DNA of 64,000 nucleotides from Gammaproteobacteria bacterium. Lineage in GTDB: Bacteria > Pseudomonadota > Gammaproteobacteria > JAUIAT01. Where the stretch lies: positions 8,784-72,783 of the forward strand of contig JAUIAT010000005.1 of NCBI GenBank assembly GCA_030425295.1, given 5' to 3'. Below the pieces are notes generated by a model, which worked only from the letters and a program-made list of their open reading frames with translations, was not told the DNA's origin and searched no databases. A program made the translations under genes and the position numbers. Below, piece after piece: positions 9,792-55,355 of the stretch (position 1 is the first letter of the stretch; each line of letters begins with the position of its first letter).

Positions 9792-10961
9792 CTAGTCGCG
9801 ACGCAGCCTCTCTTTGGTGGCCAAAGGCGTCGGATAAAGCATAACCACAATATATGAAGAGATAACAAATGTAATTATGGTAGTTGTTTGCAGCATATAG
9901 CTCGCTGTACTATCAATCAAACCAGACATAAGAGCCACAGAGGTGACCAACAAAGAAAATTCACTAACTTGGCCAAGTCTGACACCAACTTCATTGGCAA
10001 CATGTTTAGTTTCCTGAACATTACGGAGCAGAAAAGAAAACACTGCTGGCTTAACAAGAAGAATGACTGCGGCCAAAACCAAAGATGGGATAATAACTTC
10101 TGGAAGAACGTTTAAATTCAAACCCGCACCAATAGAGAAGAAAAACATCACCAAGAAGAAATCACGCAAAGGCCTTAAACTTTCAGCAATATAGAATGAC
10201 AATGGGTTAGCCGCCAAAGACACCCCTCCCAAAAATGCCCCAATCTCATATGACAAGCCAGATTTATGGCCAAGCACAGACAGGGTCAAACACCAGCCGA
10301 CTGCCACTAGAAAAGTATATTCACGAATACGGTCAAACCTTGCTAAAAGGGGGCGTAAAACATAACGCTCCACAACAAAAGCAAATAACAAAAGACCCGG
10401 CAAAGCACCCAACAACCAGGCAATATCAATCCACACAAAGGTGTCAGTACCAGCAGCATTTAAAGCCAATAAAGTAGCAATAGCGATCAAATCTTGCATC
10501 AAAAGAACACTAATCATTACCTCACCAGTATGCTGATGATGCAAGACTGTCGTCGGTAATAACTTCAAACCAATAATGGTACTTGAAAATATCATTGCAG
10601 CACCAACAACACAGGCAGCTTCCCAACTGTAACCAAACAAACGACTTATAATCACACCTACAGCAAAAAATACTATGGCGCTAATTACAGTAACCAAACT
10701 GGTGCGCCTAAACATTTGCAATAAATTTTGTGGGTGAAGATGCAATCCTAGGAGAAACAGAAGGAATAGTATACCTGTCTCACCAATTACATGAACAATT
10801 CGCAGATCGGTTATCATTGCGGCACCCCAGGGGCCAACTACAATACCCAATACAATATATCCAACTAACAAAGATTGTCTTGTAAAAAGAGCTGCTGTTG
10901 AAAACACACTAGCTCCAGCGAAAATCAAAAACAATGAAAAAATAAAATCGTATGGATACAT
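9792..10961 (-). CDS. cation:proton antiporter (Na+/H+ exchanger / Kef-like membrane domain, no KTN domain)
   Basis: 389 aa, about 11-12 hydrophobic helices, a profile typical of the CPA family. Confidence 0.75.
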   Translation of the reverse strand: MYPYDFIFSLFLIFAGASVFSTAALFTRQSLLVGYIVLGIVVGPWGAAMITDLRIVHVIGETGILFLLFLLGLHLHPQNLLQMFRRTSLVTVISAIVFFAVGVIISRLFGYSWEAACVVGAAMIFSSTIIGLKLLPTTVLHHQHTGEVMISVLLMQDLIAIATLLALNAAGTDTFVWIDIAWLLGALPGLLLFAFVVERYVLRPLLARFDRIREYTFLVAVGWCLTLSVLGHKSGLSYEIGAFLGGVSLAANPLSFYIAESLRPLRDFFLVMFFFSIGAGLNLNVLPEVIIPSLVLAAVILLVKPAVFSFLLRNVQETKHVANEVGVRLGQVSEFSLLVTSVALMSGLIDSTASYMLQTTTIITFVISSYIVVMLYPTPLATKERLRRD

Positions 10962-10969
10962 TTAACTAC

Positions 10970-11614
10970 CTAGATATTTAGTTCAGATAAAATTCTTTCG
11001 AACACCTCGTCAACTTTTCCAACACCCTGGACCTCAACAAACTTGGGACAGTCAGTTGATAATCCTCGATAAAACTCGACCATTGGCGCAGTTTGCTTGT
11101 GGTACACATGCAAACGATGCCTGACAGTTTCTTCTTTATCATCTTCACGCTGAACCAAGGGATCACCAGTGATATCATCTACCCACTCCACCTTTGGCGG
11201 ATTAAAAATTTTGTGATAACTACGACCAGACCCTGGGTGAGAAAGTCTACCGCTCATACGCTGTACAATTTCCTCATCATCAACCACAAGCTCTACTACA
11301 TAATCCAAATCAATCCCAGCCCGATCCAATGCTTTAGCCTGCACTAAAGTTCTTGGAAAACCATCAAGCAAGCATCCGTTTTTACAGTCTGGCGCAGAAA
11401 CTCTATTTTCTACAAGATCAATAATTACGGCATCTGGAACTAACTTACCAGAGTCCATATATTCTTGAGCCTGCCTACCAAGGTCAGTGCCTTCACTAAC
11501 GGCTGCACGCAACATATCGCCGGTCGAAATTTTCGGTATATTTAAATGGGCAGCTAATTTTTCTGCCTGGGTGCCTTTGCCCGCACCTGGAGGGCCTAAA
11601 AGTATAATTCTCAC
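10970..11614 (-). CDS. adk: adenylate kinase
   Basis: [17 protein letters not shown]-loop, with a LID region. GTG start. Confidence 0.95.
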
Positions 11615-16115: not shown

Positions 16116-17912
16116 TTACTTTAAGTCCGATAACACAATATTAATAAAATCAGATAAAGCCATAGGCTTATAAAAATAAAAACCCTGAGCATAATCGCAT
16201 CCACAATCTCTAAAAAATTCTGCCTGAACTTTAGTTTCAATGCCCTCAGCAACAACATGCATATCAAGAGTTTTTGCAAGATCTAGAATAGGCACTATCA
16301 TGCTATTTTTCTCAGGTACAATATTAATCTCATTAATAATACTACGATCCAGCTTTAGAGTTCTAATTGGAAGTTGCCCGAGCCTTTTCAAAGAGGAGTA
16401 ACCTGTGCCAAAATCATCAATAGCAGTACTTATACCAAGAGAGGCAATATCTTCAATATTCCCCTGAAAATCCTTAATAGATTCAACAAAAAATGACTCT
16501 GTAATCTCAAACTCAAGAAGCGACGGTAATTTAGTGTCCTGCTTCACAGCATTTCTAACTTGCTCCATAAAATGATCATCTTTTAACTGCAATCCAGACA
16601 AGTTAACAGCGAAATAAATATTCTTATCAGTCTTCTTAATTACTTCATTTAATGAATTTAAAGCCTCAGAAAAAATCCACTCCCCAAGAGGCAAAATTGA
16701 CTTATTCAATTCTGCAGCATATATAAATTCAGATGGAGCAACCTTTCCTAAGATCTTATTTTCCCATCGGCACAACACCTCAACCCCAACAATACGATTA
16801 TCAGCTAATCTTACAATAGGCTGATATTCTATATAAAACTCTTTATCCAAACTGCCAGACTTTATGATCTTCTCAAGCTCAACATGCACTTTATGCTTTC
16901 TTTCAATTTCCTCAGAAAAAAAACAATACTGCTCTTTTCCTAAATATTTAGCTTCATACATTGCATGATCAGCATTCTCTCTAAGCACCTGGGGCGATTC
17001 TCCAGATATTGGATAACAAGCAATTCCTATACTAACCCCTATGTGCAGCCTAATATCATTTACATAATAATCTTTAGATACATTATCAATTATTCGTTGA
17101 GAAATTTTACTGGCATCTTCAGGGCTCTGAATTTCGCATATCAGTAAAGCAAACTCATCGCCGCCAATTCTTGAAACACAAGGCTGTTGATTGTTCTGGC
17201 TGATAATATCAGAATCTCGAACAACTCTTTTAATTCTCTGAGCCACCATTTTTAAGAGCTCATCACCAATATCATGACCATAATTATCATTTACATATTT
17301 AAAATTATCTAAATCCAAAAACAACAGTGCAAAAATCGCCTTATTTTTTCTGGCAAGATCTATGTAAGACCCTAGGTACTTATCAAAGCTATGCCTATTA
17401 TAAAGACCTGTAAGACTATCATGACGCGCTAAAGACGAGAGCTTAGTATTAGTCCTAGCTAACTTTTTTTTCTTATCACTAAGATCCTCGATAGTCTCTT
17501 TCATTTGGCTTTGCTGTTTATAATACTCTAGAAAAGTGTTTACTTTACTAGTTAAAATCAATGGATCTATAGGCTTCATCAGGTAATCTACAGCACCGAC
17601 TTCATGACCTTTCAAAATATATTTTTGCTCTTTACTAATTGCAGTTACAAAAATAATCGGGATGTGTGAAGTTTCTCGTCTTGCCTTCAAATGACTAGCA
17701 ACCTCGAAGCCATCCATTTCTGGCATTTGCACATCCAAAAGGATTAAAGCAAAATCTTCTTCCAGGCATAAATGCAAAGCTTCCTTGCCTGATTCTGCAA
17801 AAACACATTCAGCCTTAACATCTTCCAAAGCTGACCCCATAGCAACTAAGTTGCTTTTAACGTCATCTACTACTAATATTTTTGGCAAAACGTTCCTAAC
17901 CACCTCATGCAC
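16116..17912 (-). CDS. response regulator REC-GGDEF-EAL protein
   Basis: REC (LILLDVQMPEMDG), GGDEF (RIGGDEFALL), EAL domain (EVLCRW, DDFGTGYSSL). The start is uncertain: GTG 17912, GTG 17903 or TTG 17888. Confidence 0.9.
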   Translation of the reverse strand: MHEVVRNVLPKILVVDDVKSNLVAMGSALEDVKAECVFAESGKEALHLCLEEDFALILLDVQMPEMDGFEVASHLKARRETSHIPIIFVTAISKEQKYILKGHEVGAVDYLMKPIDPLILTSKVNTFLEYYKQQSQMKETIEDLSDKKKKLARTNTKLSSLARHDSLTGLYNRHSFDKYLGSYIDLARKNKAIFALLFLDLDNFKYVNDNYGHDIGDELLKMVAQRIKRVVRDSDIISQNNQQPCVSRIGGDEFALLICEIQSPEDASKISQRIIDNVSKDYYVNDIRLHIGVSIGIACYPISGESPQVLRENADHAMYEAKYLGKEQYCFFSEEIERKHKVHVELEKIIKSGSLDKEFYIEYQPIVRLADNRIVGVEVLCRWENKILGKVAPSEFIYAAELNKSILPLGEWIFSEALNSLNEVIKKTDKNIYFAVNLSGLQLKDDHFMEQVRNAVKQDTKLPSLLEFEITESFFVESIKDFQGNIEDIASLGISTAIDDFGTGYSSLKRLGQLPIRTLKLDRSIINEINIVPEKNSMIVPILDLAKTLDMHVVAEGIETKVQAEFFRDCGCDYAQGFYFYKPMALSDFINIVLSDLK

Positions 17913-19692
17913 ATCCTTTATATTTGCCAGAAGCTAGTAATCTGCAGGCTTCTACACGTGACATAGGTTTACCTAGATGATATCCTTGACCGAAGCGACA
18001 ACCTTCATTTTTCAAAAATAGGCATTGCTCTTTTGTTTCAACTCCCTCGGCAATTGTCTGAATACCTAGATTTCTTGCCATGGCTATAATTGCTTTCACT
18101 AGTGCACCTCCATCACTTGACTCCCCTAGACTCCCCACAAAGGCGTTATCTATTTTTAGGGCGCAAACAGGCAGATTCCTCAGATCTACAAGTGATGAGT
18201 ACCCTGTTCCGAAATCATCTATAAGAAATTTAACTCCATGACCTGTAATTTTTTGCAAAAGTTCCACTAGCTTAGGTTTATTTTTCATTAAAACAGACTC
18301 AGAAACTTCTAACACTAAATCTTTTAAACTTATACCATGCTCAGAGGCTTGCATCATAAGCTTATTATAAAAATCGCCAAATTGTATTTGTTTCCCAGAG
18401 ATGTTCACAGCTAACTTCACTCCCTTGAAATCTTTTGACTGCCAGTCTTTTAAAACCTTAAAAGACTCAGATAAAACCCATTGCCCAATAGCGTGAATAT
18501 CTCCAGACTCTTCAGCGATAGCAATAAATTGATCAGGGTTCATATCGCCAAGATTTTCAGAGCGCCACCGAAGTAAAGCTTCAAAGCCAAAGATCTCTAA
18601 TTTTTTCAAGTTATAAATTGGCTGAAAATTCAAATAAAATTCATTTTTTTCAATAGCAAACTTCAAATTAGACTCTATTTCTAGGCGACTACCATACTCT
18701 TTCTGCAATGATTTGTTATAAAATTGAGATTGATTCTTGCCCATTGATTTTGCACGGTACATCGCTATATCTGCACTGCGCATAATTGTAGTAACATCTT
18801 GTCCAGCAAAAGGGAAACAAGCCACACCTATGCTAAAAGTAGGAGATTGATTGATCCCAGATACAACTAATGGATCAGAAAGAGCATTAAGCAAATGCTT
18901 TGCAACATTGCCCGCCTCACGATAATTATCAATATAGTTTAAAATAATCCCAAACTCATCGCCGCCAAGCCTTGCAACGATGTCAGTTTGTCTCACATTA
19001 TTCAAAAAAACCTGACTAATCTGCTTTAAAAGCTGATCCCCAGCATCATGCCCCAATGTATCATTAACTATTTTAAAATTATCTATATCGCAAAACAGCA
19101 AGGCAAACTGCTTATTGTAACGCTTACACTCTCTAAGTATTCTCGCTAATTCAACTTCAAATTGCCGTCTATTATAAAGATGGGTTAATGCGTCTTGATT
19201 TGCAAGATTAGACAATGCTTTATTTCTGGCTTTAAGTTCGGCTTTAACGACTCTAAGCTCACCTACTGTTTCAAGATAGTTAACTTTTTTATGCTTTTGC
19301 ATTTCAATAAAAATTTTTATTTTTGAAGCAAGAATACTCTCATCCACGGGGTAAAACATATAGTCTACTGGACCATATTCATAACCTTTGAACATCTTCT
19401 GTTTTTTATCGTTTTCAGATAACAAGAAGATAATTGGTATAGATTGAGTCTTTTTTCTTCTCCTTAGCAAGCTAGCAACCTCATACCCATCCATTCCGGG
19501 CATATCAGCAGCAATTATCACTAAATCAAAACTAGACTCTATTGCCATTTTCAAAGCCTCATGCCCAGAATCAGAGGCAGAAACATCTACATTCAAACTA
19601 GAACAACATTTTTGAACTTTATTGAGGTGCTCTTCATTTAAAGCAGCAAGCAATATACTTGTCTTTAAACTATGAGTTTTATCATTTGACAT
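17905..19692 (-). CDS. response regulator REC-GGDEF-EAL protein
   Basis: REC (VIIAADMPGMDG), I-site RQTD five residues before RLGGDEFGI, EAL (EALLRW, DDFGTGYSSL). Confidence 0.9.
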   Translation of the reverse strand: MSNDKTHSLKTSILLAALNEEHLNKVQKCCSSLNVDVSASDSGHEALKMAIESSFDLVIIAADMPGMDGYEVASLLRRRKKTQSIPIIFLLSENDKKQKMFKGYEYGPVDYMFYPVDESILASKIKIFIEMQKHKKVNYLETVGELRVVKAELKARNKALSNLANQDALTHLYNRRQFEVELARILRECKRYNKQFALLFCDIDNFKIVNDTLGHDAGDQLLKQISQVFLNNVRQTDIVARLGGDEFGIILNYIDNYREAGNVAKHLLNALSDPLVVSGINQSPTFSIGVACFPFAGQDVTTIMRSADIAMYRAKSMGKNQSQFYNKSLQKEYGSRLEIESNLKFAIEKNEFYLNFQPIYNLKKLEIFGFEALLRWRSENLGDMNPDQFIAIAEESGDIHAIGQWVLSESFKVLKDWQSKDFKGVKLAVNISGKQIQFGDFYNKLMMQASEHGISLKDLVLEVSESVLMKNKPKLVELLQKITGHGVKFLIDDFGTGYSSLVDLRNLPVCALKIDNAFVGSLGESSDGGALVKAIIAMARNLGIQTIAEGVETKEQCLFLKNEGCRFGQGYHLGKPMSRVEACRLLASGKYKGCA

Positions 19693-20266
19693 TATTACCC
19701 CCGTCCAACTGATTCAAACGAGATGCAATTTGATCTAACTCTAAAACCTCATCGACTTTAGTGATTGCCAAAGCTGATCTAGGCATTTCACTAGATAACG
19801 CAGTTTCAGGGTTCTGCACAATTGTATAACCTCCCAAGTCATGTATTTTTTTGATACCCAAAGCCCCATCGCTATTGGCACCAGTCAACAAAACGCCTAT
19901 TACTTTATCTTTATAAACATGAGCCGCTGAATCAAACAGCACATCAATGCTAGGGCGAGAAAAATTCACTCTCGGATCAGCGGATAATGACAAGCTAGTT
20001 TTGTCTTCGACTAAAAGATGATAACCGGGGGGAGCAACATAAGCCTTACCTCGATTTATTTTTATTTTATCCACTGCCTCAAGCACATCTAAGCTACTCG
20101 CCCTATTGATATGCTGCACATAATAATTATCACTTCCTTCTTTGATATGCTGAACTAAAAAAATAGGTATTGAAAAATCTTCATGGAACTTACTAAAAAT
20201 TTTGTAGAATGCCTCTAATCCACCTGATGACGCCCCAATAACTATAGCCTCAAAACAATTACTCAT
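19682..20266 (-). CDS. cheB: CheB-type protein-glutamate methylesterase, catalytic domain only (no REC)
   Basis: 194 aa starting directly at the esterase domain (AIVIGASSGGLEAF). ATGA overlap with CheR. Confidence 0.85.
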   Translation of the reverse strand: MSNCFEAIVIGASSGGLEAFYKIFSKFHEDFSIPIFLVQHIKEGSDNYYVQHINRASSLDVLEAVDKIKINRGKAYVAPPGYHLLVEDKTSLSLSADPRVNFSRPSIDVLFDSAAHVYKDKVIGVLLTGANSDGALGIKKIHDLGGYTIVQNPETALSSEMPRSALAITKVDEVLELDQIASRLNQLDGGNNVK

Positions 20267-21111
20267 GACTTCCTCTGATATATTCGGTATTTCTCATCCA
20301 CAACTTCAAAGTCATTTTCCACCTCTGTAAACCGTAATGTTTCTTTAGACCCGAGACAAAGATAGCCTTTGTGACACAAGCTATCTCTAAATAATTTTAG
20401 CACCTGGTTTTGTAAATTTTTATTAAAGTAAATTAATACGTTTCTACATAGGATTACATTCATTTCACCAAATGATCTGTCGACTGCTAAGTTATGATTA
20501 GCAAAAGTGATCCGTCTTTTTAGAAAATCTCTTAATTTAACCGCATTATAGCTACTCGTATAATATTCTGATAAACCAGAGGTACCACCAGCTTTATTAT
20601 AATTTTCAATATATTGCTTTACATTTGACGCATCATAAATACCAGTTTTTGCACACTCTAAAGCAACCTGATTAAAGTCAGTAGCATAAATTGTAGCTCT
20701 GTCCAGAAAACCTTCTTCGTGCAATAAAATAGCCATAGAAAAGACTTCCTCACCAGTTGCACAACCTGCATGCCAGACTTTTATATAAGGATAAGTTTTA
20801 AGTTTTGGAATAATATTTTCTCGAAAAGACTTGTAAAATTCAGGATCACGAAACATCTCTGTAACTGTGATAGACATTTGTCTTAAAAAAACCTCGAATA
20901 GCCCTTCATCGTATAAAAGCCTATCTGCTAACTGCAAATAAGTATCAAACTTATGATCCAGCATAAAACCAGTGACTCTTCTACGAAGAGAGGCATTGGC
21001 ATACTCATGGAAGTCATATCCATAAATTTTCTCAACAATATCTAAAAGACACTGTAGAGCTAAATTATCTTTCTTTTCATCTTCCATCGAAACCTCTATT
21101 TTGAAAGCCAT
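20263..21111 (-). CDS. cheR: CheR-type protein-glutamate O-methyltransferase
   Basis: TEMFRDPEFY, VWHAGCATGEEVFSMA and ILCRNVLIYF motifs. An alternative ATG at 21087 sits behind a GAGG RBS. Confidence 0.85.
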   Translation of the reverse strand: MAFKIEVSMEDEKKDNLALQCLLDIVEKIYGYDFHEYANASLRRRVTGFMLDHKFDTYLQLADRLLYDEGLFEVFLRQMSITVTEMFRDPEFYKSFRENIIPKLKTYPYIKVWHAGCATGEEVFSMAILLHEEGFLDRATIYATDFNQVALECAKTGIYDASNVKQYIENYNKAGGTSGLSEYYTSSYNAVKLRDFLKRRITFANHNLAVDRSFGEMNVILCRNVLIYFNKNLQNQVLKLFRDSLCHKGYLCLGSKETLRFTEVENDFEVVDEKYRIYQRKS

Positions 21112-24100
21112 ACTTTCATCATAGATAGGAGCTGATCTGTATCTATAGGCTTAGTGATATAATCACTAGCTCCTGCCGCTATACACTTTTCCCGATCTCC
21201 TGACATTGCTTTTGCAGTCAAAGCTATAATTGGAAGGGTTTTAAACTTACTATCTTTCCTAATTTCTTTCATAGCTTCATACCCATCCATGACTGGCATC
21301 ATAATATCCATAAGGACTAAGTCTATATTTGCTTCTTCATTAATTTTATCTAAAGCCAATTTTCCATTAGTAGCAATTATTACCTGCATGTCATAGTCTT
21401 CTAGCTCACTTGAAAGTGCATATACATTTCTCATATCATCATCGACAAGCAAAACCTTCTTACCGACTAAAGATTCGTTACCTTTATTGATCATATTAAT
21501 AGTAGAGTGAGAATTACCACCTGATTTTTGATCGACGCTATACAAGAATAAAGTCACTTCATCCAAAAGCCTCTCTGGAGCATCAGATCCCTTTACAACA
21601 ATACTAGAGGTATATTTTTGCAGACGCGCATGCTCATCTTCCGACAACTCCCGCCCTGTGTAAATTACAATATTAGGCATTTGATCAATTGATGAGTCCA
21701 ACTTATCTAACAAGTCAAAACCGGACTCAGTTTTAAGATTTAAATCCAAGATTACACAATCAAAGTCATTATTTGTTATTTGGTTAATTGCAGCTTCAGA
21801 GTTTGAAACTGTGACCACTTCGGCATCTTTATTTTCAAGTAAAGTTTTTATTGCAGATTGACTTGTCAGATCATCTTCAACAACCAAAACAGATTTAATA
21901 TCAGCGCCTTCGGCTTGATGGATCCTATCAAATACTTCTTTCAAAGCATCCTCATCTGCAGGTTTTTTCAAATAACCAATTGCCCCTTTTTTCAATATAT
22001 CTGGACTCTCCTCTCTACCAGAAATGACGTGCACAGGTATATCTTTAGTTTCAGGGTTGTCTTTTAAGGTTGAAAGAACAATCGTTCCATCTACATCTGG
22101 CAGCCCAAGATCTAAGACAATTGCAGAAGGCTTTATTTGCTTAGCCATAGCTATCGCCTCACGACCAGAACTTGAGGTGACACATTGATATTTTTGCTCT
22201 TCCGCAAAGTCTTTAATAATATTGGCAAAGGCAACATCATCTTCAACCACCAAAAGAGTTGGTTTATTAGGATCAAGTTCAGGAATTTGACTTGTAGATA
22301 TATTTACATCCTGAATTTCTGGTTTAACCTCTATAGTTTCTGAAGAGTCTGTAACGGTTACTTTATCAGTAGAGATGACTTTATCTGTAGCCAAAGCCCC
22401 TCTTTCACCTATGGGCAAATATATACTAAATCTACTTCCCTGCCCTTCAATGCTTTCAAGCTCAATCGAACCACCTAATAAATCAGTCATTGCACGCGAT
22501 ATAGCTAATCCTAAGCCAGTACCACCGTATTTACGTGTAGTTGAACCTTCAGCCTGCTGAAAAGCCTCAAATATTTCTTGCTGTTTATCTTTAGGGATAC
22601 CAATTCCTGTATCAATCACCGAAAATACCACTGAATCATCATTAGAATAAACATGCCCAGATAAACTTACATTTGTCGATGGGAGCCCAATTCTAAGAAG
22701 AACAGAACCTTTCTCAGTAAATTTAAATGCATTTGACAAGAAATTACGCAATATCTGTGTTAAACGTAATTTATCTGAAAATATACTGACGGGCACTCCA
22801 TTATCAATTTCAATTTTAAACTGCAAATCAGATTCTTCAGCAACGTGATCCATTTGCTGCCTAATATCATCACAAAGAGATTGAATATTAAATTCTGTCA
22901 TCTCAATTTGCATTTTGCCCGCTTCAACTTTAGACAAATCTAAAATATCATTAATCAAATTTAAAAGATCTTTACCCCCGCCATAAATAACCCTAGCAGA
23001 CTCTACCTGCTTGTTATTCAAATTTCCTTCCTTATTATCCGCCAGTTTCTTGGAAAGAATTAGCAAACTATTAAGTGGAGTCCTCAATTCATGGGAAACA
23101 TTAGCTAGAAATTCGGATTTATACTTGCTGGACAAAGCTAAATCTTTCGCTCGCTGCTCTAGCTCTTCTCTAGTAGCCTGAATTTCTTTATTTTGCTTTT
23201 CAAGACGCTGTGTTTTTTCAGCCATTTCTTCATTAATTACTCGCAATTCTTCACTTTGTGTACGTAGCTCTTCTTCTGAAGCTTGAAGAGAATTGGCTTT
23301 TTCTTCTAATTCTTCATTACTAGCCTTCAACTCTTCTTGTTGAGTTTGCAACTCTTCTTGTTGCTCTTTAAGCTTTTCAGTCATTCCTTGAGACTCTTCT
23401 AGTAATTTTTGAGTCTTTTCATGAGCCAACACATTACTAATAATTACACCTAATCCCCTAGAGACTTCATTTATAACCTCACAATCACCATCAGAAAATG
23501 GTGTAAAAGTTGCAAGCTCCACAACACCAATAATTAAATTTTCATGGAAAATAGGAGAAACTATAACCTGTTTTGGTGTTTCACTGCCCAGACCAGATGT
23601 AATATGAATATATTCTTCTGGAACATCTGTTATTGAAATAATCTTACGCTCTAAAGCACACTGCCCGACCAAACCTTCGCCTAATTTAAAGCTATTAGAG
23701 ATACTTTTTCTTTTGCTATAGGCAAAACTGGCAAACAATTTTAATATTTGATCTGAAGACTCTTTATCAAAATCTTCAATCATATAAAACGCTCCAAATC
23801 CTGCTTTTAATGTATTAGAAAGCTCATTAATTACTGTTTGCATTAAAGCAGATAAATCATGCTGACCTTGAGATAAGCCAATAATTCTAGCCGTATTAGT
23901 CTTTATCCAAATCCGTTGTTCATTATTTTCTTCCAGTTTTTGTAAATCGCCTTTCATTTTTGCAAGAGCCAAACCTAGAAGATCTTTCTCACTTCGAGGA
24001 ATAATCTCAACACTAAAGTCTCCTTCACCAATTTTTTTAGCAGAACTGGCAAGCTCCTTCGTATTATCAATAAGGCTTTTAAAAACACTTGAAAGCTGAC

Positions 24101-25136
24101 CTATCTCGTCAGAGCTATTAACACTTACATCAACATCAACATCACCTTTGCTAAAATCTTCAGCTGCTAACTTTAACTTGGAAATAGGCTTAGCAAGATT
24201 TTTTGATATATACCAAGACAGAAAGCTGCCCACTCCAAAAGCTGCAACCAAAATCAAAATCATGGCAAATGTCATCCAAGTGATTTTTGATTTAGAGAGT
24301 TCCAAATGAGCATTAGCAATACTTTGCAGCTTATCGCCCAAGATAGCATCCATTCTCAAACTATAATTTTCAAGACTAACCATTAGTTGCGCTTTTTCAC
24401 TCTCTAAAGCTAATATTTTTTCAACGGCAAGTTTAATTTCGGATTTGTGCTTTTTAAGCTCCTCAAGCCAAGTAGATTCTTGTCTATTTAGATTTAACAA
24501 TGATAACTTCGCAAACCAAGAATCAACGTCAAGCAAAGAATCTTTTACTTTATCTTTTGTTTCGCTACTTTGATTTAACATATACCCGCGGGTAGCTGAG
24601 AATAGCTCATGTAAGTTTAGTTCAATTTCTAAGACTGCTTCTTTTTTGGCGTCATATTGTCGATCAGATTTATTTAAATTAACCTGCCATTGATCGTCCA
24701 AAACATCAACAGTACTTTGCTTTATATAACGAGATAGTTGACTGGTTTCTGAGATCTGCTCATTTTCAAGCTTAAATACCTGATTTGCGATATCTAGAAA
24801 TGGTTTAAGATTTTCATCTAAAGATTTTAAATAAGATTTTTCATGGTCAGATAGTGGCGTAGATTGATAAATGTTTAAAAAGTCTTTAAAGTCCTGAATA
24901 TTAGACTTAAAGTCATTTTGTTTTTCTGGGTTTTTACTTTCAAGATAATCCAACAGATCCTTAATTGCTTCTTTCTCATTAATTTCCATTTCTAAAGCTG
25001 AATTGATTTTCAAAGTATCTTGCTTAATAGCATTATTAAAAATACTCCAACTCCATGACATGGAAAGAAAAGAAATAATACCAATAAGAAGTAGCGGAGA
25101 AAGGATAGAAACAAGCATCTTCTGGCGTATTTTCAT
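21096..25136 (-). CDS. hybrid sensor histidine kinase (2 TM, HAMP, GAF, coiled coil, HisKA-HATPase, three REC domains)
   Basis: H-box SHELRTPLNSL, G-box GGTGLGLAISR, and REC aspartates in VLDLGLPDVDG, ILDLNLKTESG and LMDIMMPVMDG. A GAGGGA RBS favours the ATG at 25136; the track start is the ATG at 25193. Confidence 0.9.
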   Translation of the reverse strand: MKIRQKMLVSILSPLLLIGIISFLSMSWSWSIFNNAIKQDTLKINSALEMEINEKEAIKDLLDYLESKNPEKQNDFKSNIQDFKDFLNIYQSTPLSDHEKSYLKSLDENLKPFLDIANQVFKLENEQISETSQLSRYIKQSTVDVLDDQWQVNLNKSDRQYDAKKEAVLEIELNLHELFSATRGYMLNQSSETKDKVKDSLLDVDSWFAKLSLLNLNRQESTWLEELKKHKSEIKLAVEKILALESEKAQLMVSLENYSLRMDAILGDKLQSIANAHLELSKSKITWMTFAMILILVAAFGVGSFLSWYISKNLAKPISKLKLAAEDFSKGDVDVDVSVNSSDEIGQLSSVFKSLIDNTKELASSAKKIGEGDFSVEIIPRSEKDLLGLALAKMKGDLQKLEENNEQRIWIKTNTARIIGLSQGQHDLSALMQTVINELSNTLKAGFGAFYMIEDFDKESSDQILKLFASFAYSKRKSISNSFKLGEGLVGQCALERKIISITDVPEEYIHITSGLGSETPKQVIVSPIFHENLIIGVVELATFTPFSDGDCEVINEVSRGLGVIISNVLAHEKTQKLLEESQGMTEKLKEQQEELQTQQEELKASNEELEEKANSLQASEEELRTQSEELRVINEEMAEKTQRLEKQNKEIQATREELEQRAKDLALSSKYKSEFLANVSHELRTPLNSLLILSKKLADNKEGNLNNKQVESARVIYGGGKDLLNLINDILDLSKVEAGKMQIEMTEFNIQSLCDDIRQQMDHVAEESDLQFKIEIDNGVPVSIFSDKLRLTQILRNFLSNAFKFTEKGSVLLRIGLPSTNVSLSGHVYSNDDSVVFSVIDTGIGIPKDKQQEIFEAFQQAEGSTTRKYGGTGLGLAISRAMTDLLGGSIELESIEGQGSRFSIYLPIGERGALATDKVISTDKVTVTDSSETIEVKPEIQDVNISTSQIPELDPNKPTLLVVEDDVAFANIIKDFAEEQKYQCVTSSSGREAIAMAKQIKPSAIVLDLGLPDVDGTIVLSTLKDNPETKDIPVHVISGREESPDILKKGAIGYLKKPADEDALKEVFDRIHQAEGADIKSVLVVEDDLTSQSAIKTLLENKDAEVVTVSNSEAAINQITNNDFDCVILDLNLKTESGFDLLDKLDSSIDQMPNIVIYTGRELSEDEHARLQKYTSSIVVKGSDAPERLLDEVTLFLYSVDQKSGGNSHSTINMINKGNESLVGKKVLLVDDDMRNVYALSSELEDYDMQVIIATNGKLALDKINEEANIDLVLMDIMMPVMDGYEAMKEIRKDSKFKTLPIIALTAKAMSGDREKCIAAGASDYITKPIDTDQLLSMMKVWLSK

Positions 25137-25343
25137 TAAGTAGTCCCTCAAAATTCCATTTCTAAAGTGACCTAAAATCAGCACCCCAAACATACATGGG
25201 TTTTAATTAATTATAGTTTTATTTAATTATAGAATGATGAAACAATAATTACCAAAAATGCTCTCTGGACATTAGCTCAGATTGCTGGTTATGATTAGGG
25301 CCTGCTGACTATTCATTTTTTTCTATTCACGAAAGGAACTCGT

Positions 25344-28013: not shown

Positions 28014-29135
28014 TCAAGGGCTAGGGTTACTATTGTCAACTTGTGGATCATCAGACCTTCCTGCCTTTATTGTTGATACTACCTCTGCTGCCAGGCTTGC
28101 AAGGCCTTTAAACATTTCCCCTATTTCTTTGGCAAATGCCTGTATCTCAGATAGGGACTCAACTGCATGTTCTTGCGCAGCTCCAGCTTGGTCACCCAGT
28201 GATCTAATACCTGATTCAAAACCTTCGAACACTTTAACCAAAGAGTCAGAGGCTTCACTAATTTTATTATCTAAATCAGCTATATCTTTTTTAAGAGAAG
28301 CATGGCCCTGACTTAACTCACCCCGAATATCTTCTAAAAATGCCACAACCACAAATAAAATATTATTCGATGCAACATTGTTATATCTTTCTTTAAAGCT
28401 TTGTGCTTTATCAGAGAAATCCTTGAACCTACTTCTTATTTGTGCACACTTCCTATTTATAAGTTTTTGCCTAATTTCCTCTCCAAACTCGGCTTTAATG
28501 CCATCCTTAATATAGGCCTTCACAAGACCGTTTAATTCAGACGGATCCAGGTCTTTTTTAATATCTTCACGAGCCGCATCTATATAAACTTTCCTGACTC
28601 CTAACCCAGAATGTCCAGGCTGGCTGTTTATTTCATCAGTAGCAAGGTCAGTTAACACTTCATTTTTAAGATCAGCTAATTCTGCTTTAGTAAGACTTTC
28701 AAATTTGTCTTCAGCTAATTTATCTAACTCATCACTCTCAAGCTTACTTAATTCTTCAGAAAATATTAGAGAGTCCTCTTTCAAGAGTTCATTCTTAATC
28801 TTTTTAAGAGTTTCTTTACCAGCATCGATGAGACCTTCTTGGCCTAGTTGAACAACTTCACCTGGATTTGCTTTCCTAGCAACGTCAATGGCCCCTTTTT
28901 CAAATTCACTACTAGAATAACCAGAGGCCCCGTCATATTTGACAGACAAATCATTAGCGAACTTAGCAAAATCCTTATACGCTTTTATAAAATTTTCTAA
29001 TTCATCTTTAATTTTTGGGTACACTTTTTCATCGTACGTCAACTCCCAAGCCAATTTATAATTGGAAGATGATTTTTCTAAATATACCCTTTTCTTACCC
29101 AGGCTCTCTATATATAAATCTCTATATGTACCCAT
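28014..29135 (-). CDS. hypothetical all-helical protein (orphan; no signal peptide or TM)
   Basis: 373-aa ORF rich in K, E and D with coiled-coil character. No motif I recognise. Confidence 0.5.
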   Translation of the reverse strand: MGTYRDLYIESLGKKRVYLEKSSSNYKLAWELTYDEKVYPKIKDELENFIKAYKDFAKFANDLSVKYDGASGYSSSEFEKGAIDVARKANPGEVVQLGQEGLIDAGKETLKKIKNELLKEDSLIFSEELSKLESDELDKLAEDKFESLTKAELADLKNEVLTDLATDEINSQPGHSGLGVRKVYIDAAREDIKKDLDPSELNGLVKAYIKDGIKAEFGEEIRQKLINRKCAQIRSRFKDFSDKAQSFKERYNNVASNNILFVVVAFLEDIRGELSQGHASLKKDIADLDNKISEASDSLVKVFEGFESGIRSLGDQAGAAQEHAVESLSEIQAFAKEIGEMFKGLASLAAEVVSTIKAGRSDDPQVDNSNPSP

Positions 29136-31785: not shown

Positions 31786-34128
31786 ATGGAAAGAAAAACT
31801 GAAACTATATACGAATGGATTATGCTGCTGGCCAATGAAATGGATCAACAAGGCATCCGTCCAACCATTTCTAAAATAAAAGCAAAAGTAGGCAGAGAAG
31901 TTTCACAAGCTCAAGTTGCCAAATACCTTAGAATTTGGAAAAAAGAAAAGGCTGAAATAGACAAGCCTGTTAAGTGGGTTAATTCACAAGAACTTCACGA
32001 TGATAAACAAACTGACGAAAGCGATTCCGAAGGTAATGTATCGGTAGCCGTAAAGAAACAAACCGCTCAATTGACGCAATCACTTGCCCTGGTTCGCGCG
32101 ACTCTAGAGGCCACAATCGATGGCATTCTCATAATAAGTAAAGAAGGTAAGCTAGTCGACTGGAATAAAAAACTTATTGAAATAATGCACGTCCCGGAAC
32201 AGGTACTTATGAGTCGTGATGAAGAAGGTGGAGTTGCAATGCTTTTAGAGCAGGTTGCCGACCCCCAATCACTTATGAACGATATCATGTACTGTATGCA
32301 GAACCCAGAAGCATCAGTTAACCTAGGTGAAATGCTTTGTAAAGATGGCAGGATAATTGAAAGATACTCACAACCTCACATTGTTGATGGCGAAATTGTC
32401 GGTAGAGTTTGGAGTTTTCGTGACATTACTGAACGCAAACAAACCGAGCTTGAACTTCTCCTCAAAAATCGAGCGATGGAGGCAAGCCCAAATGGCATAT
32501 TTATTTTAGATGCTATTAACAACAACCTGCCTATGCAATATGTAAACCCTGCATTTGAAAACATGACAGGGTATGCAAGCTCAGAAGTATTGGGTGAAAA
32601 ATGCATTTTCTTGCAAAATAAGTACGATAAGGACCCCCAAAGCCACAAACTTGAAGAGATAATTCATCAAAAAGAAACAAACAAAGTAGAAATGAAATGC
32701 TATAAGTTTGACGGCACCTCATACTGGGGAGAAATCCATATAGCACCAGTGCCAGACCCTAATGGTGACATTAGATATTTTGTAGGAATTGTTGTTGATA
32801 TTACTGATAGAGTTAAACTTAGAAAGCAACTTGAACATCAAGTCACACATGACTCATTAACAAGCCTTCCTAACCGGGCATTACTTTGGGACCGTTTACA
32901 TCAAGCAACACTCCATGCAAAAAGAAACAAGCGTATTGTTGCTGTTTTATTTATTGACCTAGATAGATTCAAACTGATAAATGATAGCCTAGGCCATTTA
33001 TTAGGGGATAAGCTCTTGGAAGAAGTTGCAAACCGCTTACTTGCAACAGCTCGAGAATATGACACTGTATCAAGGCTAGGTGGAGATGAATTTGTAATTG
33101 TTTTGGCTGGTATTGAGCAAGAAGAAGATGCTGTAAACTGTGCGATGAGAGTATTAGAAGAAGTGTCTAAACCATACCAGATTCAAGGCCACACATTAAA
33201 TACTACAGCTAGTATTGGCATATGCTTTTATCCAAAAGATGGTAAAACTGTTGAGACCTTGTTAAAACATGCTGACTTATCAATGTATCGAGCAAAAGAA
33301 AAGGGTCGTAACAACTTTAAATTCTATACAAGCGGATCCAACAAGGCAGTTAATAGACTATTAAAAATTGAAAATAATTTGCGGACAGCGCTACAAAATC
33401 ACGAGTTTAAACTTGTTTACCAACCAATTATTGAAATTAAAACAGGAAAAGTTATTGGTTGTGAGTCACTTATAAGATGGCACAACCCTGAACTAGGCCA
33501 AGTTAGACCAGATGAATTCATCCCCATCGCAGAAGAAAACCGTATCATCGGCAAAATTGGTGAATGGGTTCTAGCTAGGTCCTGTAAAACTATCACATCT
33601 CTAGAAGAAATTGGAATACAAAATTTCAATATGGCAGTTAATTTATCTGCTAGAGAATTCAAGCAGAAAGGCTTAATTGATTTAATCTCAAAAATATTGC
33701 GCAAATACAGTATTGACCCAAAACAAATTCATTTAGAAATTACTGAAAGAGTTGTAATGGAAGACATAGAGTACGTAATTGATATACTAAATAAATTAAA
33801 AGATCTTGGAGTTCACATAGAACTAGATGACTTTGGAACTGAGTATTCATCTTTAAGTTACTTAATAAGGCTACCGATTGACGCCATAAAAATTGATCTT
33901 TCATTTACCAGAGCATTGTATGCAAAAGCAGAAAACGAATCATTGGTTAAGTCAATAATAGCTCTTGGGAAAAGCCTAGGAATCAGGATAATTGCTGAAG
34001 GCATAGAAAATCAAAAACAATATAATTTCTACAAAGAAAATAAATGTGACTTTGGGCAAGGTTATTTAATGTCTAAACCTTTATCATATGATGAATTAAT
34101 TGAATTTTTGAAAGCACAACGAATCTAA
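31786..34128 (+). CDS. multidomain c-di-GMP protein: KfrA_N-like N-terminus, PAS, LOV-like PAS, GGDEF, EAL
   Basis: I-site REYD plus RLGGDEFVIVL. EAL domain (ESLIRW, LDDFGTEYSSL). Two PAS cores. Confidence 0.9.
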   Translation: MERKTETIYEWIMLLANEMDQQGIRPTISKIKAKVGREVSQAQVAKYLRIWKKEKAEIDKPVKWVNSQELHDDKQTDESDSEGNVSVAVKKQTAQLTQSLALVRATLEATIDGILIISKEGKLVDWNKKLIEIMHVPEQVLMSRDEEGGVAMLLEQVADPQSLMNDIMYCMQNPEASVNLGEMLCKDGRIIERYSQPHIVDGEIVGRVWSFRDITERKQTELELLLKNRAMEASPNGIFILDAINNNLPMQYVNPAFENMTGYASSEVLGEKCIFLQNKYDKDPQSHKLEEIIHQKETNKVEMKCYKFDGTSYWGEIHIAPVPDPNGDIRYFVGIVVDITDRVKLRKQLEHQVTHDSLTSLPNRALLWDRLHQATLHAKRNKRIVAVLFIDLDRFKLINDSLGHLLGDKLLEEVANRLLATAREYDTVSRLGGDEFVIVLAGIEQEEDAVNCAMRVLEEVSKPYQIQGHTLNTTASIGICFYPKDGKTVETLLKHADLSMYRAKEKGRNNFKFYTSGSNKAVNRLLKIENNLRTALQNHEFKLVYQPIIEIKTGKVIGCESLIRWHNPELGQVRPDEFIPIAEENRIIGKIGEWVLARSCKTITSLEEIGIQNFNMAVNLSAREFKQKGLIDLISKILRKYSIDPKQIHLEITERVVMEDIEYVIDILNKLKDLGVHIELDDFGTEYSSLSYLIRLPIDAIKIDLSFTRALYAKAENESLVKSIIALGKSLGIRIIAEGIENQKQYNFYKENKCDFGQGYLMSKPLSYDELIEFLKAQRI

Positions 34129-34476: not shown

Positions 34477-35910
34477 TCATGCACTCTCAAGACAAGCTTC
34501 AGCTTCAGGACTTAAAGCCCAAGAAGTAAGGACTTTATTAGGGTCATGCAATTTTTTCATAGCTTCTCTAAATTCAAATTCATCCCCATAATGATGCGAC
34601 CAATATTCATCTCGATCAAAATCTGCTAGCCATCCAGATAAATATCGCTTAGATCCAACAGCTAATAACATAGAGTTAATATACTTAAGCTTAGATAGAA
34701 TAGTCTCACTCATGTGCTCATCAACCCCCATTGGCAAGATAGCCAAAGCAAACAAATGATTCGTTGGCGGCCGCATAAACAACCTTGGCAATGACCTATC
34801 ATTAATAGGCTGGAATCGACAGCTTGCAACTTGCGGAGGTAATATATTCAATATCTCAGGCAAAACTTTACTCAGACTACTTGCCGAGATAAAGCAGTCA
34901 ATCCAGGGGTGAGGCCTATTCCAGTCACCAGTCTGATGCATTTGTTTAAATCTAATTTGATACCTTTCATAAAATTCAACAGTTTCAGTGTCAGAAATAT
35001 CAGAACATTGCCAAAAATTAATATAAGGTAAGAAATTTTCTCCTGTTGGAGGAGATTGAGGGGTGTCATACTCACAACCAAGATGTAAAGCATAAACCCA
35101 ATGAGCATATGGTTCACGCTTTCCTTTATTAAAACGGGTACCAGGGATACAAGGAATTGTAAAAGTTTCAATGTGATCACAAATACGATTACATTTGAGA
35201 TTCACTTCTGCATCAATGCAAGCATCTAAACTATCAAATAATAAAGTCCAAGATCTTGTATATTTTTTAAATCGCCTTAATCTCAAAGTAGCTTTTGTAG
35301 TTATCGATGAATAGCCAAGGTTAGATAATGATGAATGAAATAGTTTTTTATCCTTCTGCCAATTACACTTAACATGCTTACCATTTCCAGTAAGAACCTC
35401 GAGCGATTCAACAGTACTAACAACAGGACCATAAATGTGACTATTCGAAGCAATACCACCAACTGCTAAAACTCCGCCTAACGTGATGTCATCATTTGCC
35501 ATTGTAACCTCTGGTATGACACCATCTGACAAACAAGCTTTCTTGATTTCACCCCAATTAGCTCCAGTTTCACAGGTTATTGTCATGTTATTTAGGTCAG
35601 GCGCTTCAATATTATTCAAATTGGTTAAAATCACTGACAGTGATTTAAACCCAGCAATTGACTGGCCGCCTTCACTTAAACCTTTGCCTCTAGGAGTTAA
35701 AGCTAAATGATGCCTATTCGCATACTCAACTAGTAATTTTAATTGAGCAATGTTATGAGGTATTGCTACCCCAGAGCAATCACCCTTAACCAAGCGTCCA
35801 AAGTCATGATTCGCCTGATTCAAACTGTCTTCATCACGCATAAGCCTCAGACCTACAAACTTTTCACAGTCTTTCAGACATTGCTCAGACCAATCAGCTT
35901 TATTCGGCAT
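34477..35910 (-). CDS. FAD-linked oxidase, cytokinin dehydrogenase (CKX)-like
   Basis: FAD_binding_4-type N-terminus (TPRGKGLSEGGQS). The C-terminal RPHPWIDCFI resembles the plant CKX signature PHPWLNxF. Confidence 0.7.
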   Translation of the reverse strand: MPNKADWSEQCLKDCEKFVGLRLMRDEDSLNQANHDFGRLVKGDCSGVAIPHNIAQLKLLVEYANRHHLALTPRGKGLSEGGQSIAGFKSLSVILTNLNNIEAPDLNNMTITCETGANWGEIKKACLSDGVIPEVTMANDDITLGGVLAVGGIASNSHIYGPVVSTVESLEVLTGNGKHVKCNWQKDKKLFHSSLSNLGYSSITTKATLRLRRFKKYTRSWTLLFDSLDACIDAEVNLKCNRICDHIETFTIPCIPGTRFNKGKREPYAHWVYALHLGCEYDTPQSPPTGENFLPYINFWQCSDISDTETVEFYERYQIRFKQMHQTGDWNRPHPWIDCFISASSLSKVLPEILNILPPQVASCRFQPINDRSLPRLFMRPPTNHLFALAILPMGVDEHMSETILSKLKYINSMLLAVGSKRYLSGWLADFDRDEYWSHHYGDEFEFREAMKKLHDPNKVLTSWALSPEAEACLESA

Positions 35911-37039
35911 TTTCTGCCTTCCTTGTGCAAAAAGGTTTATGAGCTTTTTTTTCTGCTATATCTGTTTCAAACTCAACCCAACTTTCTTTAGGGGCCCCGT
36001 TTTCTCTGGAATAAAAAGCTTCTTTATCCTGACAATTTGTTTGGTGCCACCCTTTTGGATACCAGTAATCTGGGCCTTGCCAAGGAGACATACCCTGACA
36101 ACGGCTAGCCCAATTTGAAAAAGACCGGTCATTTGGTCTCGACCAGCACTCAGCTCTTATTTGCCATGGGGCTGGAGATTGACAATTATTCCGCTCCCAA
36201 TTTGCTCTTTCCCAAGCTTTACGAGCTTGCCATTCTTGTCGCATCTCATCTTCCCAGCTCATACCCCATTTATCACGGTTTTTCCAGCTTTCTTCAGATT
36301 CAGGCAACCAACTATACTTAGGCTGTTCGCTTTTCCAATCTCTCCAATTCTGCAATTTTCTTCTGTTACTAGTTTCCCAGGAAGGCTCATTATCAAACCA
36401 CTGTATAAGAATATTCCAGCAAGCTTCAAAGCAATGATATACTAAGCGACAAGCAGCGTTCCTTTGTTCTGGATGCAAATTAATTTCAAAAAGATCACGC
36501 TCCATCTCATTTTCAAATACCGCATGCGACTCTTCGACTTCCAAGTGGTTTTTATCAAAATATTTTAATTTACCTTCCCATCCTTGTCTGCTGACATATT
36601 CTGACACTTTCTTAAACAAAATATGGCCGGTCCCCTCAAGGGCTAGCAATAAAACTATTCTCAAAATTTCATCATCAATCCAAAGGGCTTCAGCCATAAT
36701 TCTATTGGCATTATCGCGTGTTACTTGGTGTTCTTCACTAAATAACCAGCGAATATCAAATGTTTTTTCTCCCCACAACTGCTCGAGATCAGAAAGATAC
36801 CAAAGGTCATGAGCTTTATCTTCAATGCAATGATGGCGCGCAATTTTGTGCAAATAGGGATCGCTAATGCTATTCGCATTAATTCTTAATACATCTTGGA
36901 AAGTAAATACCCAAAAAGCAACTTTAGGTATAAACATTTTAAACATTTCAAATGGTGGATTTTTTTCCAGCTGAAGAAAAAAAGGATGACTTTCAAATTC
37001 CTTTTGCTTTTTTTGAATATAAGATTTCACTTGCTTCAT
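35900..37039 (-). CDS. heme-oxygenase-like (di-iron/TenA-PqqC-CADD fold) protein with a Trp-rich C-terminal extension
   Basis: N-terminal ESHPFFLQLEKNP and candidate ligand motifs HHCIEDKAH, LALEGTGH and HLEVEESH. The last approximately 165 residues contain at least 17 Trp. Confidence 0.45.
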   Translation of the reverse strand: MKQVKSYIQKKQKEFESHPFFLQLEKNPPFEMFKMFIPKVAFWVFTFQDVLRINANSISDPYLHKIARHHCIEDKAHDLWYLSDLEQLWGEKTFDIRWLFSEEHQVTRDNANRIMAEALWIDDEILRIVLLLALEGTGHILFKKVSEYVSRQGWEGKLKYFDKNHLEVEESHAVFENEMERDLFEINLHPEQRNAACRLVYHCFEACWNILIQWFDNEPSWETSNRRKLQNWRDWKSEQPKYSWLPESEESWKNRDKWGMSWEDEMRQEWQARKAWERANWERNNCQSPAPWQIRAECWSRPNDRSFSNWASRCQGMSPWQGPDYWYPKGWHQTNCQDKEAFYSRENGAPKESWVEFETDIAEKKAHKPFCTRKAENAE

Positions 37040-55349: not shown

Positions 55350-55355
55350 AACCAT

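Follow-up and report, generated by a model that had tools for sequence, protein, structure and literature searches.

A 64,000-nt stretch of the gammaproteobacterial contig JAUIAT010000005.1, the whole of which is referred to here as the window, encodes on its minus strand five closely packed genes for a membrane-bound hybrid histidine kinase, a CheR-type methyltransferase, a CheB-type methylesterase and two proteins with receiver (REC), GGDEF and EAL domains, which we call regulators A and B (Table 1). A first-pass annotation of this DNA had predicted that CheR and CheB act on the adjacent hybrid kinase and that this kinase feeds the enzymes of cyclic di-GMP (c-di-GMP) turnover. This prediction is well supported by homology, by synteny and by the conservation of a helix within the kinase. 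The same annotation had taken the arrangement to be experimentally uncharacterised, and here we disagree with it: the operon belongs to a family that is already known and occurs in many phyla, and whose homologues RsbK/RsbM and CfcA/CfcB/CfcC have been studied.

All five open reading frames (ORFs) lie exactly where the first-pass annotation had placed them. The kinase ends with the stop codon TAG at 21098-21096, and CheR possesses two in-frame ATG codons, at 21111 and 21087, either of which had been offered as its start. The codon at 21087 is preceded by an AGAGG Shine-Dalgarno sequence 7-11 nt upstream and agrees with a public product of 274 aa (P0001). Because of these two features, the junction between kinase and CheR is probably a gap of 8 nt and not the overlap that the earlier start would give. 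The ATGA overlap of CheR and CheB could be read directly in the sequence at 20263-20266, and the overlaps between CheB and regulator A (19682/19692, 11 nt) and between regulators A and B (17905/17912, 8 nt) were likewise present. Such packing is not a product of chance, since dozens of genomes share this gene order. For the kinase itself, ATG 25136 is the probable start and would give a protein of 1346 aa, as in an existing gene call of that length. Matches to promoter and terminator patterns across the operon region did not exceed the number expected from shuffled sequence, and the promoter listed in Table 1 is a candidate only.

We screened all 50 non-overlapping ORFs of the window with at least 94 aa against Pfam, and all ORFs of at least 70 aa with phmmer. 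Among the 50 ORFs, Pfam detected no MCPsignal, CheW, CheA, Hpt, H-kinase_dim, P2 or stand-alone REC domain. The phmmer scan likewise found no domain of a methyl-accepting chemotaxis protein (MCP), with locus L031 serving as positive control. Both scans agree with the earlier statement that MCP, CheA, CheW and CheY are absent from the 64 kb. For CheW we rely on Pfam, since the CheW probe had no positive control.

Every domain previously called in the five genes was matched by Pfam, which added to the kinase an MCP-type sensor, the periplasmic four-helix bundle 4HB_MCP_1. The kinase shows the architecture of its family by Pfam, with a helical periplasmic sensor, HAMP, GAF, a signalling helix, HisKA, HATPase and C-terminal REC domains; most relatives have CHASE3 at the place of 4HB_MCP_1. 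Its H-box with the phospho-acceptor His701 was invariant across 66 orthologues, and all three receivers retain the full residue set including the phospho-acceptor aspartates (D1028, D1150 and D1296). No histidine phosphotransfer (HPt) domain was found in the kinase by Pfam. The protein shared 39.6% identity over 986 aa with CfcA of Pseudomonas putida, encoded in the cfc cluster of that species (L034), and 36.5% over 674 aa with an RsbK-like kinase (L062).

The methyltransferase, by type a protein-glutamate O-methyltransferase, consists of CheR_N and CheR by Pfam and keeps its SAM-binding and catalytic motifs, with FR(D/E), ATD and CRNV(L/M)IYF all conserved. Its nearest solved structure is 5FTW (Bacillus subtilis CheR, 117 bits), and 1BC5 was aligned as well. 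It is 46% identical to CfcB and 44% to an RsbM-like protein (44-49% across RsbM-like and CfcB proteins). The subfamily comprises more than 8000 database clusters at E<1e-20, with 50-62% identity even between phyla. CheB is formed by the methylesterase/deamidase domain only (residues 8-184 of 194 aa; Pfam 193 bits over the full profile), lacks REC and is 44.6% identical to P. putida CfcC. Its catalytic triad of Ser (GASSGG), His (VQH) and Asp (NSDG) aligned with that of 1CHD and 1A2O, and 6YMZ was also used. Judged from their residues, both enzymes look active. Against the NCBIfam equivalog models they reached scores of 80 for CheR (cut-off 435) and 155 for CheB (cut-off 293), and values so far under the cut-offs for the chemotaxis enzymes fit a separate subfamily.

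The description of the last two genes as dual REC-GGDEF-EAL holds for the domain sets, which Pfam found in both proteins together with the motifs GGDEF, EAL/EVL, DDFGTG and EG(V/I)E, but not for the receiver of regulator A, which is a pseudo-receiver. In this protein GGDEF, a canonical RxxD I-site, EAL, DDFGTG and EGVE are intact, and all five of the five receiver hallmarks are lost (Ala-Ala replaces the acidic pair, Ala the phospho-acceptor Asp, Leu the conserved Thr and Tyr the conserved Lys). Regulator B (motifs GGDEF, EVL, DDFGTG and EGIE) has an intact receiver with phospho-acceptor Asp60 and the full residue set, and over its first 160 residues this receiver shares 37% identity with CfcD of P. 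putida. Regulator B is probably the protein that the kinase phosphorylates directly. A pseudo-receiver as a family trait of the first regulator was ruled out: the three closest five-gene blocks have intact receivers at this place, and the loss in regulator A is thus recent and lineage-specific. A third c-di-GMP protein with PAS-PAS-GGDEF-EAL architecture (780 aa, 31786-34128, plus strand) is encoded 6.6 kb from the operon.

Table 1. Positions of the operon genes, the kinase domains and the promoter candidate within the window
Feature	Position (nt)	Strand	Residues	Remarks
Hybrid kinase ORF	21096-25193	minus		From ORF list; 1365 aa counted from first ATG
4HB_MCP_1, periplasmic four-helix-bundle sensor of MCP type	24753-25136	minus	20-147	Pfam, 37 bits (cut-off 27)
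Transmembrane-like segments bracketing the 4HB sensor			about 26-53 and 302-330
HAMP	24060-24209	minus	329-378	Pfam
GAF	23439-23864	minus	444-585	Pfam
Signalling helix with EEL heptad array	23124-23405	minus	597-690	Proposed methyl-accepting segment
HisKA (dimerisation and histidine phosphotransfer domain, DHp)	22917-23120	minus	692-759	Pfam; His701 codon 23091-23093; motif SKYKSEFLANVSHELRTPL
HATPase_c	22410-22775	minus	807-928	Pfam
Three REC	21117-22265	minus	about 977-1092, 1103-1222, 1247-1359	Pfam
CheR ORF	20263-21111 (first ATG); 20263-21087 (preferred start)	minus		274 aa with preferred start
CheB ORF	19682-20266	minus		194 aa
Regulator A ORF	17905-19692	minus
Regulator B ORF	16116-17912	minus		Start codon GTG
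Promoter candidate, sigma-70-like, TTGGTA-18-TATAAT	25226-25255	minus		In the 150-bp gap upstream of the kinase

Signalling helix and family-wide synteny

Between the GAF domain and the H-box, the kinase sequence is organised in the heptads QQEELQT, QQEELKA, SNEELEE, KANSLQA, SEEELRT, QSEELRV and INEEMAE. Within this array (about residues 613-656), whose register to His701 is constant, Leu occupies heptad position 'a' at 615, 622, 629, 636, 643 and 650, followed by Met at 657, and Glu-Glu pairs occupy positions 'f,g'. The pairs E613/614, E620/621, E627/628, E641/642, E648/649 and E655/656 are candidate methyl-accepting sites. We compared the helices of the 66 orthologues in an ungapped alignment anchored on the invariant SHELRTPL motif of the H-box. 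The 7-residue Leu repeat extends from 615 to 685, with conservation of 88-97% at eight of the 11 positions and of 59-64% at the other three. The Glu-Glu pairs were the next most conserved residues after the heptad Leu (Glu in 67-86% at E613/E614, E620/E621 and E648/E649, and in 52-70% at E641/E642), and Gln is common beside them (QQEEL). With Leu at 'a', the 'd' positions are polar, and together with Glu pairs at 'f,g' this is, by its heptad pattern, the signature of a marginally stable signalling helix. An AlphaFold model showed one unbroken helix from about residue 568 at the end of GAF to about residue 719 in DHp helix 1, with a predicted local distance difference test (pLDDT) score of 82-92 over the array. 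Kinases adjacent to CheR carried 2-7 in-phase EEL heptads (median 4, one kinase with none), and the other kinases of the same loci almost all carried 0-2.

Methylation sites of MCPs follow the consensus [ASTG][ASTG]-x-x-[EQ][EQ]-x-x-[ASTG][ASTG]. Sites of this type were ruled out for the kinase helix, as a scan, for which a Tsr fragment was the positive control, gave no strict match in the kinase and one match in 68 orthologue helices. On its sequence, the EEL array is a putative methyl-accepting helix of a distinct kind rather than an MCP adaptation region that has moved. A literature search on EEL motif strings found nothing relevant, and a word-indexed protein search with the 58-aa coiled-coil segment gave nothing usable, probably because of low complexity.

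For the synteny analysis we scanned CheR loci in one genome per species, which resulted in 80 loci whose ORFs were annotated with domain probes cut from the proteins of the window. These loci came from Pseudomonas, Alcanivorax, Colwellia, Bacteroidota, Paenibacillus/Bacillus, Nostoc/Anabaena, Gemmatimonadota, Planctomycetota, Verrucomicrobiota, Myxococcota and others. A module recurs in them, in which a GAF-HisKA-HATPase kinase with one to three REC domains is followed by CheR, REC-less CheB and a receiver protein, and it was found in Pseudomonadota, Bacteroidota, Bacillota, Cyanobacteria, Gemmatimonadota, Planctomycetota, Verrucomicrobiota and Myxococcota. The hybrid kinase was encoded directly upstream of cheR in 63 of the 68 loci with at least 3.5 kb of upstream sequence. 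The cheB gene followed cheR directly in 63 of the 80 loci, and 61 of these 63 CheB proteins lacked REC. An MCP domain within ±10 kb was present at a single locus (1/80). The fourth gene of the module usually encodes for a REC-kinase and sometimes for a REC-GGDEF (L006, L033, L054) or a REC-GGDEF-EAL protein (L047, L056).

The full five-gene block with two REC-GGDEF-EAL genes was present in three genomes among the closest CheR relatives, namely the Legionellales metagenome-assembled genome (MAG) GCA_002708265.1, the Coxiellaceae MAG GCA_029210045.1 and Thiotrichales bacterium 19X7-9 (GCA_021713415.1). The co-occurrence across Legionellales and other taxa that the first-pass annotation had proposed to look for is found as the complete block in these three genomes and as the shorter module in many phyla. 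The block lies in differing chromosomal neighbourhoods and is thus a cassette that has been conserved within this gammaproteobacterial group.

Some loci depart from the common order. A REC gene lies between cheR and cheB in L003 and L004 (about 10830-11310), CheB is fused to REC or a REC-kinase in L008 (8985-11429) and L080 (10759-12585), and single-domain REC and Hpt genes follow cheB in L168 (9586-10451). These variants suggest that some lineages regulate CheB by phosphorylation or use a phosphorelay. Eight loci of Paenibacillus/Bacillus relatives (L011, L012, L014, L046, L062, L063, L077 and L078) have CheR without a paired CheB. At L062, the neighbouring genes encode for a STAS protein (RsbV), an anti-sigma kinase (RsbW), a sigma factor, a REC-PP2C protein (RsbY) and a ferritin, in the cluster rsbV-rsbW-sigB-rsbY-ferritin-rsbK-rsbM, whose parts are those of the sigB cluster of Bacillus cereus.

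An exhaustive HMMER search with kinase residues 604-665 returned almost exclusively orthologous kinases among the best 150 matches, which therefore provide no independent test by themselves. The search also yielded a fragment of a different kind (P0242, TNEELQSSNEELETTNEEL). With P0242 as query we obtained 80 metagenome loci (L081-L160), in which every 5'-complete ORF bearing the array encodes for a protein of about 620 aa with the order CheR_N-CheR-PAS-array-PAS, as checked with Pfam. The array of these fusion proteins consists of 5-12 in-phase heptads of the type NEELQS/T, and a REC-less cheB lies directly upstream of the fusion gene in most loci that were long enough. The family is common in soil metagenomes (examples are L105, 4756-6600, and L103, 4136-6618), and no publication was found on its NEELQS/T heptad motif. 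A similar array is hence linked with CheR and CheB in two architectures that are not related, operon and fusion, as expected if the array is the substrate.

Proposed mechanism and competing explanations

Two members of the family have been studied. In Bacillus cereus the hybrid kinase RsbK is reported to be methylated on its signalling helix by the methyltransferase RsbM, and purified RsbM moves a 14C-methyl group from S-adenosylmethionine (SAM) onto RsbK (PMC4574943). Loss of RsbM results in constitutive output, and methylation together with RsbK's own receiver, which is inhibitory and not a relay step, keeps the kinase off (PMC4574943). RsbM acts without a paired methylesterase and forms an operon with rsbK in a sigB cluster of seven genes, and '127 RsbK-like sensor kinases in 10 bacterial phyla' are cited in the same work (PMC4574943). 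A further publication repeats the RsbK/RsbM picture (PMC12848376). In P. putida, cfcA (PP_3761) of the cluster cfcABCDE encodes for a multisensor hybrid kinase (PMC4951495). His496 of CfcA is needed for c-di-GMP synthesis by CfcR, a REC-GGDEF-EAL protein. Salt and temperature have been described as cues for CfcA and RsbK. In mutants of the other cfc genes the crinkly-colony phenotype was not lost (unpublished results cited in PMC4951495), and methylation of CfcA was not reported in the P. putida cfc literature that we found.

We consider it likely that the locus in the window is a two-component system that carries its own means of covalent tuning and belongs to the family of RsbK/RsbM and CfcA/CfcB/CfcC, and that CheR and CheB act on the helix of the kinase. 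The kinase would sense via its periplasmic four-helix bundle, HAMP and GAF domains, and the signal would pass along the signalling helix, predicted to run unbroken into the DHp helix with His701. Using SAM, CheR would methylate the Glu-Glu pairs of the helix, one per heptad, and the REC-less CheB would strip the methyl groups and possibly deamidate neighbouring Gln. The level of methylation would then set or reset the output of the kinase. His701 would phosphorylate the receiver of regulator B directly, with a shift in its GGDEF/EAL balance as the result. Regulator A, which cannot be phosphorylated, would probably be constitutive or act by pairing with regulator B. Methylation in this organism, its exact sites, its reversibility and every biochemical step of this scheme we infer from comparative analysis.

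An HPt domain that could bridge the kinase receivers and the two regulators had been reported as missing, and Pfam scans found none in the window. This is not a paradox, because the RsbK receiver is reported to be inhibitory and not to serve as a relay step. The three receivers of the window kinase would likewise be inhibitory or phosphate-sink domains rather than parts of a relay that requires HPt. Some family members may use a relay, as the REC and Hpt genes of L168 indicate.

Several points weigh against this reading. No methylation data were found for the window kinase or for any CheB-containing member of the family. The array departs from the MCP consensus, and recognition of its sites must therefore differ from that by canonical CheR. 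A few proteins known as isolated sequences (P0255, P0186) bear EEL arrays too. That kinases next to CheR have more EEL heptads than others does not amount to an independent test, because all of these kinases are orthologues and share common descent. The AlphaFold model was made from a single sequence, and its GAF part is of low confidence. CheB lacks the receiver, and hence the classical phospho-feedback on demethylation is absent. Finally, the MCP scan covers the 64-kb window, and MCPs elsewhere in the genome are possible.

Methylation of the kinase might also be real but static. In this case CheR would keep the kinase off as a set-point or lock, and CheB would deamidate Gln or oppose CheR at steady state without stimulus-dependent feedback. 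This would be consistent with B. cereus and its Paenibacillus/Bacillus relatives, which work with CheR alone (PMC4574943 and the loci listed above), with the missing receiver of the window CheB and with the frequent Gln next to the Glu-Glu pairs. Yet cheB is retained directly behind cheR in most members outside Bacillota, which argues for a reversible modification, and a receiver beside or fused to CheB in L003, L004, L008 and L080 suggests regulated demethylation in those lineages. In E. coli chemotaxis, moreover, the preference of CheR and CheB for certain conformations of their chemoreceptor substrates can by itself yield feedback. We therefore regard a purely static function as rather unlikely, though it deserves serious consideration.

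Far less probable is that CheR and CheB target acidic pairs in receivers, either in the REC domains of the kinase or in the regulators. The operon encodes five receiver domains, and CheR-dependent methylation of E/D pairs has been reported for the response regulator PhoP of Salmonella (PMC8546571). Methylation of RsbK, however, lies on the signalling helix and persists in D827 receiver mutants (PMC4574943). The element that the window kinase has in common with the CheR fusions is the EEL coiled coil and not a receiver, and across the family the downstream regulators vary (kinase, GGDEF, GGDEF-EAL, PP2C) while the helix is constant.

It is also very unlikely that CheR and CheB are ordinary chemotaxis adaptation enzymes that serve an MCP and CheA/CheW encoded elsewhere and share the operon for co-expression only: both match standard Pfam families with intact catalytic residues, the MCP scan is limited to the window and some Legionella species encode a chemotaxis system (PMC2824747), but this CheR subfamily is tied to a GAF hybrid kinase and hardly ever to an MCP, its NCBIfam scores and those of CheB fall far under the chemotaxis cut-offs, CheB lacks the receiver through which CheA controls CheB, and RsbM methylates a kinase. 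P. putida, furthermore, has MCPs, and yet its orthologous CheR/CheB pair is reportedly without a role in chemotaxis.

If CheR and CheB act on the kinase helix, as we favour, the CheB-containing version may even be a true adaptation device, with stimulus-dependent, reversible and multi-site methylation of the EEL helix by enzymes that read its conformation. We propose this tentatively and regard it as possible rather than probable. The c-di-GMP output would then be transient and would respond to change, not to level. The EEL array, for its part, would be a methyl-accepting unit that can be combined with different proteins, that differs from the adaptation region of MCPs and that is also used by the CheR-PAS-coiled-coil fusions. 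More generally, the locus would extend the use of the CheR/CheB toolkit from chemoreceptor arrays to a classical histidine kinase. It offers a clean and compact example with both c-di-GMP output enzymes inside the operon, in a Legionellales-like bacterium with Dot/Icm genes, and within a family whose methylation data come from a CheB-less Bacillus member only. The EEL array supplies concrete residues to mutate, and its fusion to CheR in another family supports the array as the substrate. When genomes are annotated, chemotaxis should not be deduced from CheR and CheB genes of this subfamily.

Other genes of the window

Genes for DotU and an IcmF-like protein (54690-57899, plus strand) fit a type IVB secretion system of the Dot/Icm kind and a host that resembles Legionellales. 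The origin of the closest CheR relatives in Legionellales, Coxiellaceae and Thiotrichales adds to the support for this placement. Three large ORFs showed neither a Pfam nor a PADLOC match (39068-41626, plus strand, 852 aa; 28014-29135, 373 aa, and 35900-37039, 379 aa, minus strand), and none of the five Pfam-less ORFs of the window had a match in PADLOC. The 852-aa ORF starts in the stretch of lowest GC content in the window (38-40 kb, 31% GC). These three ORFs are candidates for secreted effectors in a Dot/Icm organism. On the minus strand, 34477-35910 encodes for an FAD-binding protein with a C-terminal domain of the cytokinin dehydrogenase type (PF09265), a plant-like family that is unusual in bacteria.

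The gene for release factor 2 (44112-45215, minus strand) contains a classical programmed +1 frameshift site near 45139-45155 (GGGGGTATCTTTGAC), and therefore the ORF list shows only the downstream part of 305 aa. A tRNA-Lys(UUU) gene (45275-45350) is located just upstream of it. A PilQ-like secretin gene (47787-49687, minus strand) is followed by small ORFs without Pfam match, and this region probably closes a pilMNOPQ cluster for type IV pili. Downstream of the secretin gene, 46785-47336 encodes shikimate kinase.

Comparison with characterised systems

With the canonical MCP/CheA/CheW adaptation of E. coli and B. subtilis, the operon shares the catalytic domains of CheR and CheB, Glu pairs spaced 7 residues apart on a long helix after HAMP, and an N-terminal four-helix-bundle sensor of the MCP type. 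Unlike in the canonical pathway, no MCP signalling hairpin, CheA or CheW is encoded in the window, and receptor and kinase are joined in a single protein. The putative methyl-accepting helix is predicted to be two-stranded with Leu at 'a' and polar residues at 'd', whereas MCPs form a four-helix bundle; the MCP site consensus is absent and CheB is without the N-terminal receiver.

The likeness to the Wsp pathway of Pseudomonas that had been pointed out applies to the logic, as methylation-tuned sensing is coupled to a receiver-controlled diguanylate cyclase in Wsp and would be so in the operon. It does not extend to the parts, and no Wsp component other than the CheR and CheB homologues is found in the window. 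Wsp relies on an MCP (WspA), the CheW-like WspB/D, the CheA-REC protein WspE and the full-length CheB WspF, none of which the window encodes, and the output proteins of the window also carry EAL, unlike those of Wsp. The CheR-PAS fusions have in common with the operon similar Glu-Glu-Leu heptads and the pairing of CheR with REC-less CheB. They differ in that the array is joined to the methyltransferase itself, between two PAS domains, in a protein without a kinase domain.

Much closer in architecture is the RsbK-RsbM-RsbY system of B. cereus, to which the link runs via the architecture and gene context of L062. Common to both are a periplasmic helical sensor, HAMP, GAF, the signalling helix, HisKA/HATPase and REC in the kinase, a CheR-type gene immediately downstream and a partner regulator with enzymatic output. 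The RsbK-like kinase of L062 also has EEL heptads at the same place before the H-box. Methylation of the kinase helix was experimentally shown in B. cereus and is predicted for the window operon. RsbK has one receiver and a CHASE3 sensor, the window kinase three receivers and a sensor of the 4HB_MCP_1 type. There is no paired CheB in B. cereus, whereas a REC-less CheB is present here. The output in B. cereus is a REC-PP2C phosphatase that feeds sigma-B, in place of the two REC-GGDEF-EAL proteins of the window.

The cfc cluster of P. putida shares with the operon the gene order of kinase (CfcA), CheR (CfcB), REC-less CheB (CfcC) and receiver protein, and in both systems the kinase is linked to a REC-GGDEF-EAL regulator and c-di-GMP, through control that is established for CfcA and proposed here. 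CfcA of L034 has three REC domains by Pfam, as does the window kinase. The fourth gene of the P. putida cluster encodes for the REC-kinase CfcD, and CfcR is encoded elsewhere in that genome, whereas in the window two GGDEF-EAL regulators replace CfcD within the operon itself.

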